This document shows positions 24,388 through 25,413 of a DNA stretch of 25,722 nt, one piece after another. Every line of letters starts with the position of its first letter. The stretch's first letter is position 1. The notes under the pieces are model-generated. The model saw nothing but the letters and a program-made list of their open reading frames with translations, made no database searches and was not told the DNA's origin. The position numbers and the translations under genes are program-made. The stretch spans positions 32,481 to 58,202 of the forward strand of contig JACRKZ010000103.1 of assembly GCA_016235455.1 (NCBI GenBank), read 5' to 3'. This DNA is from Armatimonadota bacterium (GTDB lineage: Bacteria > Armatimonadota > UBA10988).

Positions 24388-25020
24388 TCAGGGCTCGGGG
24401 ATGTTGTCTCGATTGTGCATCGTCGGCGCGGTGTGGATGTCGCCGCTGGGCCTGAGGGTCTGCTCCCAGCGCAGCCACTTCACGTGGCCATCGGCGAAGG
24501 CGTAGTTCGAGCCGTCGAAGTGCCGCTTGGCGTCGAGCGCGTCGAGTTCGAACTCAGCCGTGTTGTAGAAGACGTGATAGTCCTCCTCTTCCACAGTGCC
24601 CAGGCGCTCGGCGAACATGATCTGTTCAGCCGGGGTCTGGAACGCGGCCAGGCTGATGCCGTGGCCGAAGACACCGTTCACCAGGTAGTCGGTCTTGGTG
24701 GTGGTCGTGCCGCGGTTCGACATCGAGGGACAACGGAACACCTGGTCACTCTTGATGTACGGCTGCAGCGGTCGGTACCACGAGTAGCCCGTGGTGTGGT
24801 TGGCGTGCATGGTGGCCTCGTCCCAGTCCTGGCAATACTGGACCACGGCCAGTCCGATCTGCTTGAGGTTCGAGGTACAACTGACCTGGCGGGCCTTCTC
24901 ACGGGCCTTGGCGAACACAGGGAACAGGATCGCCGCCAGGATGGCGATGATCGCGATGACAACCAACAACTCGATCAGCGTAAAGGCAGCCGTCGACGGA
25001 CGGCGTCCACAAGTCTTCAT
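24388..25020 (-). CDS. Prepilin-type N-terminal cleavage/methylation, DUF1559, H-X9-DG domain protein
   Basis: [79 protein letters not shown]. Confidence 0.92.
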
Positions 25021-25074
25021 GGGAACTCCCGGGCGTAACAGGGTCGTGCCGACCCGAGGTCGGCGCGGGCAATG

Positions 25075-25413
25075 TCAGTGAGCCACGTGGGGAGGTCCGC
25101 GAACGGCGGGCTGGGTGGCGGCCGCGACGGTCGGGCGCGGCGTGCTTGGTGCCGGCACGGCACTTGGGGTCACCGGCCAGGGCAGGGCCGTCGCCGTGCC
25201 GGCCATGGCCGGCAGCGCCGAGGCCACGCATAGCAGGCAGTCGTCGGCCGTGCTCAGGCCCGCCAGCTGGGCGACCGGTGCTGGGCTGGCGGTGAGTACC
25301 AGGTCGCGGTGGGTGAGCGGGTGCAGTATGGCTAGGGCAAACCAAGCCAGCGCGCTCAAGCGAGCGAGCGCCGGATTGGCTCCATGGGCTGCACGGCGCA
25401 GGAAGCGCTCCAC
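25075..25413 (-). CDS. DUF2946/CruR-like leader protein (TM/signal helix, HxxxH, CxxC, C-terminal RGPP); putative ribosome-arrest peptide
   Basis: GTG start at 25413 with GAGGGA upstream; 112 aa MERFLRR...LSALAWFALAIL-HPLTH...DDCLLC...Pro/Ala-rich...AVRGPPHVAH; ends 54 nt upstream of the DUF1559 gene. Confidence 0.7.
   Translation of the reverse strand: MERFLRRAAHGANPALARLSALAWFALAILHPLTHRDLVLTASPAPVAQLAGLSTADDCLLCVASALPAMAGTATALPWPVTPSAVPAPSTPRPTVAAATQPAVRGPPHVAH

Follow-up and report, generated by a model that had tools for sequence, protein, structure and literature searches.

Why should a small reading frame ahead of a pilin-like gene end in Arg-Gly-Pro-Pro (RGPP), and why should this motif be written in codons that its host seldom uses? 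The question is raised by a locus of an Armatimonadota bacterium (assembly GCA_016235455.1, contig JACRKZ010000103.1, positions 32,481 to 58,202); the whole stretch of 25,722 nucleotides that was analyzed is called the window below. On its minus strand a 112-codon leader reading frame precedes a gene for a DUF1559 pseudopilin. The original prediction, made from the DNA letters, was that the Gly-Pro-Pro codons of the leader act as an anti-Shine-Dalgarno (anti-SD) element for that gene, with a ribosome stalled on RGPP freeing the Shine-Dalgarno (SD) sequence and release of the stall letting the stem refold. Our preferred reading, based on modeled RNA structures and held with a probability of roughly 0.5, is that the leader is an arrest peptide related in style to CruR and to the Arg-Ala-Pro-Pro (RAPP) class, in which the arrest-site codons also serve as anti-SD for the pseudopilin gene, by a SecM-like logic. 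As modeled, the locus would probably belong to the class in which an arrest peptide unmasks an SD, here with compact dual coding.

A Leader Reading Frame with Features of an Arrest Peptide

The elements on which the argument depends are as follows, in window coordinates.

25418..25423, minus strand: SD-like GAGGGA, 4 nt ahead of the proposed leader GTG (read from the sequence)
25075..25413, minus strand: leader open reading frame (ORF) of 112 codons plus TGA, ending ...QPAVRGPPHVAH (GTG at 25413-25411; stop at 25077-25075)
25324..25359, minus strand: residues 19-30, LSALAWFALAIL, a hydrophobic segment near the N-terminus, preceded by a basic stretch (read by eye from the translation)
25228..25239, minus strand: CxxC motif (C59-L-L-C62), 42 residues ahead of Arg105 of RGPP (from the sequence)
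25090..25101, minus strand: RGPP motif, codons CGC GGA CCT CCC, residues 105-108 of 112 (from the sequence)
25090..25098, minus strand: candidate anti-SD GGACCUCCC, the Gly-Pro-Pro codons, 5' arm of the predicted outer helix (from pair probabilities)
25048..25064, minus strand: inner hairpin GCCGACC-UCG-GGUCGGC within the 54-nt spacer (present in all folds)
25022..25030, minus strand: SD GGGAG (25030-25026) plus UUCC, 3' arm of the predicted outer helix (from sequence and fold)
24388..25020, minus strand: gene for a DUF1559/HX9DG prepilin-type protein of 210 aa (Pfam and NCBIfam)

The GTG at 25413 is the only in-frame candidate start with an SD-like sequence, and above ~25531 the open frame of the minus strand runs antisense to a divergent gene of the URO-D family, which places the leader start inside the 510-nt divergent region. 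The hydrophobic segment LSALAWFALAIL aligns with the hydrophobic N-termini of other leaders and, judged from sequence, is a probable signal or anchor. At the other end, the RGPP codons are followed by CAC GTG GCT CAC TGA (HVAH and the stop), and a spacer of 54 nt separates this stop from the ATG of the DUF1559 gene (25020-25018) on the same strand. The leader is thus a small ORF (fewer than 300 aa) that is co-directional with, and upstream of, another gene. The downstream protein matches Pfam DUF1559 (E 2e-11) and N_methyl and exceeds the cut-offs of the NCBIfam models pre_pil_HX9DG and IV_pilin_GFxxxE. As a separate observation, the leader TGA and the DUF1559 ATG lie in one frame (25018-25077) with no intervening stop, such that read-through of the TGA would give a fused product.

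Predicted Pairing of the Proposed Arrest-site Codons with the Shine-Dalgarno Sequence

On the minus strand GGACCUCCC (25098-25090) is complementary at 8 of 9 positions to GGGAGUUCC (25030-22); equivalently, the reverse complement of GGACCTCCC is GGGAGGTCC, which agrees with GGGAGTTCC (25030-25022) at 8 of 9. The sole mismatch, C25095 opposite U25025, leaves 5 bp of CUCCC:GGGAG and 3 bp of GGA:UCC on either side of a 1x1 mismatch, and GGGAG stands 5 nt (TTCCC) ahead of the ATG, so both the complementarity and the placing of the SD are as they had been described. SD-dependent initiation appears to be normal in this genome, since its 16S tail includes CCUCC and an SD-like hexamer is found in 81 of 95 paralogous pilin-type genes.

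An unconstrained fold had been proposed as the check on accessibility, and in it the SD is inaccessible with exactly CUCCC as its partner. Positions 25030-25026 pair with 25090-25094 at a probability of 0.75-0.98 across contexts of 106, 141, 221 and 454 nt, and each SD base is unpaired with a probability of at most 0.10 in all four. The outer helix encloses a middle helix, formed by the last codons of the leader with the 3' part of the spacer, and the 7-bp hairpin at 25064-25048. In the RAPP structures (Morici et al. 2024, PMC10951233) RAP occupies the P site and Pro the A site; by analogy, CCU (25095-25093) would be the P-site codon and CCC (25092-25090) the A-site codon, which would keep CUCCC inside the decoding centre.

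When a ribosome footprint (P-12 to P+13, forced single-stranded) was imposed, the long-range pairing was lost and the SD moved into a weaker local hairpin, in which GAGUU pairs with GACUU (codons 3-4) and the AUG lies in the loop. Opening the RNA from the SD to the start codon, calculated for several contexts and four footprint definitions, costs 7.5-8.7 kcal/mol in free RNA of the window, and stalling lowers this cost by 1.0-1.4 kcal/mol; the fall is small because the SD finds a new partner, GACUU of the coding region. By the Boltzmann factor, 1.4 kcal/mol would amount to roughly a ten-fold shift of the open fraction, a value inside the error of such models. As to the claim that a stalled ribosome frees the SD, the predicted P and A sites do contain the anti-SD arm and the modeled footprint abolishes its pairing; the predicted freeing itself is limited by the re-pairing.

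The choice of codons fits a role at the RNA level. In 2677 long ORFs with high G+C at third codon positions, GGA makes up 2.9% of Gly codons and CCT 3.8% of Pro codons, bearing out the remark in the original prediction that both are uncommon, with CCC at 37.9% of Pro codons; A/T-ending codons make up 19.6% of the leader overall. The further hint, that such codons were selected for the RNA, gains support from synonymous nulls, under which the natural codons rank in the top 1-2.5%. With the ten codons at 25107-25078 recoded 400 times under genome usage and 400 times under leader-like usage, the natural pairing of SD to stall zone (0.92) was attained in 1.0 and 1.25% of recodings, respectively, and the natural opening energy (8.75) in 1 and 2.5%. 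None of 40 synonymous permutations within the leader came up to the natural value (p=0.024), and the chance of a 9-mer with at most one mismatch to the SD complement inside the 26-nt stall zone is ~0.2% by arithmetic from the window-wide rate.

From the computed sequence features, pairing, codon choice, conservation and enrichment we infer a cycle of leader translation, arrest, modulation of the arrest and control of expression through pairing. The minus strand would encode a 112-codon RAPP-like leader composed of a hydrophobic N-terminus, CxxC, a 42-residue linker, RGPP, four residues and a stop. In free mRNA the Gly-Pro-Pro codons would form the 5' arm of a nested stem and the pilin SD its 3' arm, the start codon would lie in weak local structure, and initiation would be damped. 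In the stalled state the SD would be left in the weak hairpin alone and the pilin gene would be translated. Once the arrest was released, the ribosome would terminate 5 codons later and the stem would re-form. Export might bring about the release by pulling the nascent chain, or the CxxC, at a distance of roughly one tunnel length, might do so in response to a ligand or a redox event.

Conservation in a Second Copy, an Ortholog and a Paralog

The window is the end of contig C41, and the 785 nt at the contig end (window 24936-25722) are repeated with 95% identity at the end of a second contig, C70 (C70:38891-39675). The two forms have about equal depth in one DNA run, which points to a repeat present twice that interrupted the assembly or to two strains that were assembled together. 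Between the copies, leader codons 1-68 show 5 synonymous and 0 non-synonymous differences, the linker carries six non-synonymous differences clustered with a pair of compensating indels, and the conserved leader end ATQPAVRGPPHVAH has two differences, both synonymous. This pattern appears to fit a coding minus frame, with modest force because a plus-strand ORF shares the third positions and needs just two more non-synonymous changes. In C70 GGACCTCCC and the SD are unchanged and the Arg codon is CGA in place of CGC; the 45-nt spacer there holds 7 substitutions, among them two in the hairpin loop and A25047G, which lengthens the conserved stem.

A search with the pilin protein gave no match in the genome contigs, and in metagenome contigs it gave one ortholog, L130, besides three more distantly related pilins that lack a leader. 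The L130 contig starts at the arrest motif and encodes RGPPTTGC and a stop, with the motif codons CGA GGA CCT CCC, ahead of a pilin that is 85% identical to that of the window. Its leader tail, spacer and hairpin all differ from those of the window, and its SD region is AAGGAGTTCCCATG. Both GGACCTCCC and GGAGTTCCCATG are retained in C70 and L130 despite the diverged leader tail and spacer, and in the L130 fold GGA:UCC and CUCC:GGAG form at a probability of ~1.0. In the adjacent inner helix of L130, 2 pairs are changed on both sides; RNAalifold misaligned the inner hairpin of this sequence, and the "broken" pairs that it shows there are alignment artefacts.

The closest paralog lies on contig C91 (C91:34009-35038; L009:609-1638), with a pilin 60% identical to that of the window. 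Its leader of ~108 codons starts with a signal-like segment, contains several Cys residues and ends in ...LPARRGPPVPAAD (RRGPPVPAAD), with the motif in common codons (CGA GGG CCC CCG). Here the predicted partner of AGGCACC in the SD region is GGUGCCU, which spans +6 to +12 counted from the first base of the P site (pair probability ~1.0); the SD, AAAGG, stands 8 nt ahead of the ATG, and a different hairpin follows the stop. In the model, C91 is the same architecture in a different sequence, with the anti-SD just 3' of the A site and not in the Pro codons. RGPP is thus kept in C70, L130 and C91, and a scan of the whole genome for RxPP codons 85-115 nt ahead of FTLIE codons found C41, C70 and C91 only (reversed control, 0). 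For these two relatives the same calculation as for the window gave a larger predicted effect of stalling.

C70: free-RNA opening cost 10.1-11.8 kcal/mol; fall on stalling 4.3-6.9
C91: free-RNA opening cost 7.2-9.1 kcal/mol; fall on stalling 2.4-5.2

Recurrence among Leaders of Pilin-type Genes

Species-representative genomes were scanned for RxPP codons 85-115 nt ahead of FTLIE codons (at least 120 loci), with a second scan of 400 genomes of the window's phylum (50 matching, 30 loci used). Loci with no in-frame start or with a downstream ORF not beginning FTLIEL were dropped, together with L159 (no start) and L134 and L136 (no match to the regular expression). Leader-type loci were defined by a pilin N-terminus of FTLIEL[LMI], an open frame of at least 34 codons ahead of RxPP and a stop no more than 19 codons beyond it; the doubtful leaders L040, L062, L096 and L097 were included. 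All other FTLIEL rows, with the same nucleotide string at the same distance and no leader, served as controls. Clustering at 0.8 similarity reduced 93 rows to 28 leader and 57 control clusters, counted among the matches listed. The pairing measure, S, is the share of SD-hexamer pairing directed to the zone P-12 to P+13.

S of at least 0.4: leaders 16/28, controls 5/57 (Fisher p=3e-6)
Median S: leaders 0.54, controls 0.0001 (Mann-Whitney p=1e-4)
Fall in opening energy of at least 3 kcal/mol: leaders 15/28, controls 7/57 (p=1e-4)
Median fall: leaders 3.4 kcal/mol, controls 0.2 kcal/mol (Mann-Whitney p=0.001)
S of at least 0.4, strong SDs only: leaders 13/19, controls 4/28 (p=2e-4)

The G+C content of the controls is somewhat higher (0.66 versus 0.58 in leaders). 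Synonymous permutation over the 28 leader clusters gave a combined p of 0.0027, with six clusters at the floor of 0.024 and one more at or below 0.05, and CCT as the first Pro codon is weakly enriched (12/28 leaders versus 12/57 controls). Examples are L100, where CCUCCUGUG pairs against CACAGGAGG, L122, where CCUCCUGUC pairs against GACAGGAG, and L021, where GCUCCUCCC pairs against GGAGGG. One lineage (L081, L126, L145-L148) has an unusual SD-like GGUGG together with Pro codons CCA-CC, whereas elsewhere GGAGG goes with CCU-CC, which looks like a swapped A-U/U-A pair; L145, of the same lineage but with CCT-CCT, has lost the predicted pairing (S 0.07).

Leaders of the same build, with a hydrophobic N-terminus, often a CxxC and a short tail, stand upstream of DUF1559-type genes in other lineages. 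A D/N-CxxC at 42-46 residues ahead of R[AG]PP recurs in 8 of the 28 leader clusters; the distance from CxxC to RxPP is 42 in the window leader, 53 in C91 and 43-46 in five other leader lineages.

The analysis was extended to DUF2946, the CruR family, in Pseudomonadaceae and two Burkholderiales genomes (36 loci, L164-L199; 33 rows, 29 clusters). This family-level draw was used in place of a class-wide draw of 81 genomes, only 2 of which had a DUF2946 match. The hexamer chosen as SD for the next ORF is predicted to pair with the stall zone at RAPP (S of at least 0.4) in 15 of the 29 clusters, against a mean S of 0.02 for control zones moved 30-90 nt upstream. Among clusters with a spacer of at most 140 nt, 15 of 22 attained an S of 0.4 (synonymous permutation, combined p=0.0026). 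With downstream starts set by rule, these predicted structures are suggestive of a translational layer in DUF2946/CruR leaders beside the Rho mechanism.

That dual coding is a general design rule of RAPP/RGPP leaders, with the Pro-Pro codons or the bases 3' of the A site selected as anti-SD, we put forward tentatively, giving it somewhat less than an even chance. If the rule were true, arrest site and RNA switch would be one element, peptide motif and SD would constrain each other's evolution, and the metal-responsive CruR/DUF2946 leaders would carry a translational layer beside the Rho-dependent one.

Weighing the Explanations

A number of results weigh against the reading of the arrest codons as a regulatory anti-SD. 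With the footprint imposed, opening in the window still costs ~6.1-7.3 kcal/mol, a small predicted gain. The 3-bp GGA:UCC extension is the less stable part of the helix (pair probability 0.05-0.67), and the whole region folds no better than dinucleotide shuffles (z -0.94 and 0.13), as expected for RNA of 69% G+C. The ribosome-binding site is no more occluded than usual in this genome: in a context of -130 to +25 it takes 7.08 kcal/mol to open, at the 39th percentile of 95 paralogous genes, whose median is 7.68, and the mean opening energy of recoded leaders is still 7.0. The covariation across homologs that had been proposed as a check did not appear: RNAalifold on the three orthologous sequences found the outer helix invariant, and its sole change, G to A in the SD of L130 (C:G to C:A), is uncompensated. 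In addition, 37 of 63 4-fold sites of the pilin gene are identical, which makes conservation of three synonymous sites weak evidence. Sixty relatives gave only weak, chance-level matches to the leader besides its own two copies, and Pfam and NCBIfam gave no match for the leaders. In the class-level test, starts and SDs were set by rule, the structures are predicted and the lineages are related and non-independent; moreover, 12 of the 28 leader clusters lack pairing of the SD to the stall zone. Among them, L043 and L053 have a CxxC 45 residues ahead of RGPP and an SD masked by a CUCC immediately upstream of it, not by the stall site, and these would need a different RNA logic if they are regulated by arrest.

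Whether the pairing exceeds chance has a mixed answer. Besides the favorable codon nulls, the window holds 4 9-mers within one mismatch of the SD complement versus 5.55 expected, and a duplex rank test of 9-mers in the stall zone and in other 26-nt zones against the 15-nt ribosome-binding region gave p=0.495. We dropped the rank test as a measure, since competing structures do not enter into it and a match to any portion of a G+C-rich 15-mer counts. Taken together, the modeled structures leave the SecM/MifM-like interpretation of the original prediction partly supported.

The alternative that survives best, which we nevertheless consider unlikely, is a real CruR-like arrest peptide with a transcriptional output, in which, as in Bordetella CruR, the stalled ribosome blocks Rho-dependent termination in the stretch from leader to pilin gene, Rho terminates once the stall is released, and the SD pairing is secondary or tolerated. 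The architecture matches CruR (an exported small protein with CxxC and, 42 residues on, R[AG]PP; 45 in CruR), RAPP-dependent control in CruR works through Rho in the account given in PMC9426467, the predicted translational effect in the window is small and the 3' part of the leader is C-rich. Yet the spacer is 54 nt and filled by a stable hairpin, compared with 162 bp in CruR, and rare codons are kept in three sequences where CruR has frequent RAPP codons. A purely transcriptional output also leaves unexplained the enrichment of pairing between SD and stall zone and the result of the synonymous nulls, and the Rho and SD-unmasking mechanisms are compatible with each other.

Less probable still is that the pairing is a functionless by-product, Pro-Pro codons (CCNCC) resembling an anti-SD near a strong SD in any G+C-rich RNA. 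The 9-mers at chance rate, the rank test, the ordinary occlusion, the non-significant fold z-scores and the helix without covariation all suit this explanation, as does the high pairing (mean 0.3-0.7) that synonymous shuffles keep in several other lineages. However, controls with the same CGN-GSN-CCN-CCN string at the same distance seldom pair with the SD (5/57), and the codons expected in a genome of 69% G+C, GGC CCG CCG, would not pair, the natural choice being in the top 1-2.5%. In C91, which lacks CCUCC, the SD still has a predicted partner in the bases that directly follow the A site, and the GGUGG/CCA-CC lineage fits selection for pairing.

A leader that is untranslated or non-arresting, that is, a G+C-rich accidental frame in a divergent promoter region with RGPP as a chance tetrapeptide, is very improbable: long spurious frames are frequent (the 25.7 kb of the window hold 90 ORFs that reach 100 aa or more), the plus-strand ORF at 25115-25435 shares third positions and leaves the minus frame only a slightly better synonymous pattern, and the leader has no family match, no RNA reads and no promoter-like site, but leaders of the same architecture precede both the closest paralog and pilin-type genes of further lineages and phyla, an SD-like sequence precedes the leader start, two changes are synonymous in the minus frame only, and an enrichment of DUF1559 genes behind RAPP-type upstream ORFs (uORFs) is published.

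The reading of the arrest codons as anti-SD would matter beyond this locus. The conversion of arrest into expression is known for few RAPP/RGPP leaders, by a stem-loop (SecM and one secDF2 leader) or by Rho (CruR). If arrest codons are the anti-SD, sequence alone could reveal how many still unannotated leaders, a large class, produce their output, and odd codon choices at RAPP/RGPP motifs would be explained. A very large and functionally obscure family, DUF1559/HX9DG, would also be tied to a CxxC-bearing sensor peptide, a hint at regulation by export capacity, metal or redox state.

Surroundings of the Locus

The assembly is 6.5 Mb with 69% G+C, and the whole genome (G000) holds ~95-110 DUF1559/pilin-type genes. 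One further feature was annotated next to the leader.

25531-25722, plus strand, running off the contig: divergent gene of the URO-D family (Pfam E 1.4e-15 on the full-length copy)

This neighbour is complete in the second copy on contig C70 (L008:283-1383, minus strand), where it encodes 367 aa. Downstream of the pilin gene lies a convergent gene (22247-23977, plus strand) for a putative [NiFe]-hydrogenase large subunit, judged by the look of its translation. No promoter-like or terminator-like site was found in 24300-25722, and Rfam at E up to 1 gave no match within 24900-25600. In a single RNA run, cover is confined to 24900-24994, the conserved N-terminus of the pilin, with reads from many organisms, and the leader is without cover.

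Comparison with Known Systems

Published systems are compared here as far as the parts of the cited papers drawn on describe them. The association of RAPP uORFs with DUF1559 and the classical unmasking logic are already known, the former from published source data; the parts worth testing are the compactness of the dual coding and the way it seems to recur between lineages. Fujiwara et al. (2025) describe small secretory proteins with RAPP or RGPP upstream of diverse genes. Their source data place DUF1559 genes downstream of 112 RAPP versus 68 AAPP uORFs, and the RAPP table of supplement file 6 gives DUF1559 an enrichment of 6.46-fold (adjusted p=1e-31); DUF1559, SD sequences and stem-loops go unmentioned in the main text, in the part drawn on. 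A full-text search found no literature linking DUF1559 to arrest peptides, and no description of Pro-Pro arrest codons as anti-SD was found, judged from titles and the openings of abstracts.

In SecM, as in MifM-yidC2 and VemP-secDF2, a stem that masks an SD is kept open by the stalled ribosome, and expression of the gene drops once the arrest is released (PMC10987492, PMC7897499). Like the SecM-secA system of Escherichia coli, the locus has a leader with an N-terminal export signal, here a probable one, and a C-terminal arrest sequence, here a candidate, and a stem that sequesters the downstream SD in free mRNA, here a prediction only. SecM ends R-A-G/P (stall point at the slash), whereas the motif of the window is RGPP, with a predicted stall at RGP/P and no sequence homology. 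Unlike in SecM and MifM, the downstream gene encodes a DUF1559 pseudopilin and not a Sec or YidC component; unlike in SecM, the anti-SD is predicted to consist of the P- and A-site codons themselves, and the CxxC of the leader suggests a different or additional release signal.

A closer parallel in logic is the uDF_RQH_Enterobacterales-secDF2 leader (Fujiwara et al. 2024, PMC10987492), in which a RAPP-like arrest induces the downstream gene. There a stem-loop masking the SD is predicted, and arrest-dead and stem mutants behave as the model predicts. The leader of the window differs in family, host and target gene, and its arrest codons themselves would form an arm of the stem.

ApdA, ApdP and ApcA are small membrane or secreted proteins encoded ahead of another gene, and their RAP(P/G) core stands close to the C-terminus (PMC7897499, PMC10951233). 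For all three, structure prediction showed no hairpin sequestering the downstream SD in the part of the report used (Sakiyama et al. 2021, PMC7897499), unlike the window, where the SD-sequestering stem is the dominant predicted structure.

In build, the leader is most readily set beside CruR, the DUF2946 protein of Bordetella pertussis (Roy et al. 2022, PMC9426467), an exported uORF product with a CXXC ~45 residues ahead of RAPP. Arrest at RAPP there controls the downstream gene through Rho-dependent termination over a 162-bp spacer; the RAPP is written in frequent codons, the target is a TonB-dependent transporter and the system is copper-responsive. Like CruR, the window leader has a hydrophobic N-terminus, a CxxC and R[AG]PP a few residues ahead of the stop, and its spacing of 42 residues between CxxC and RGPP is just outside the CruR range (45, within one or two). 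Unlike CruR, it has no match to Pfam PF11162 (DUF2946) up to E 10, as is also true of the C70 and C91 leaders, and it combines a 54-nt spacer and rare codons at the motif with a pseudopilin as its target.

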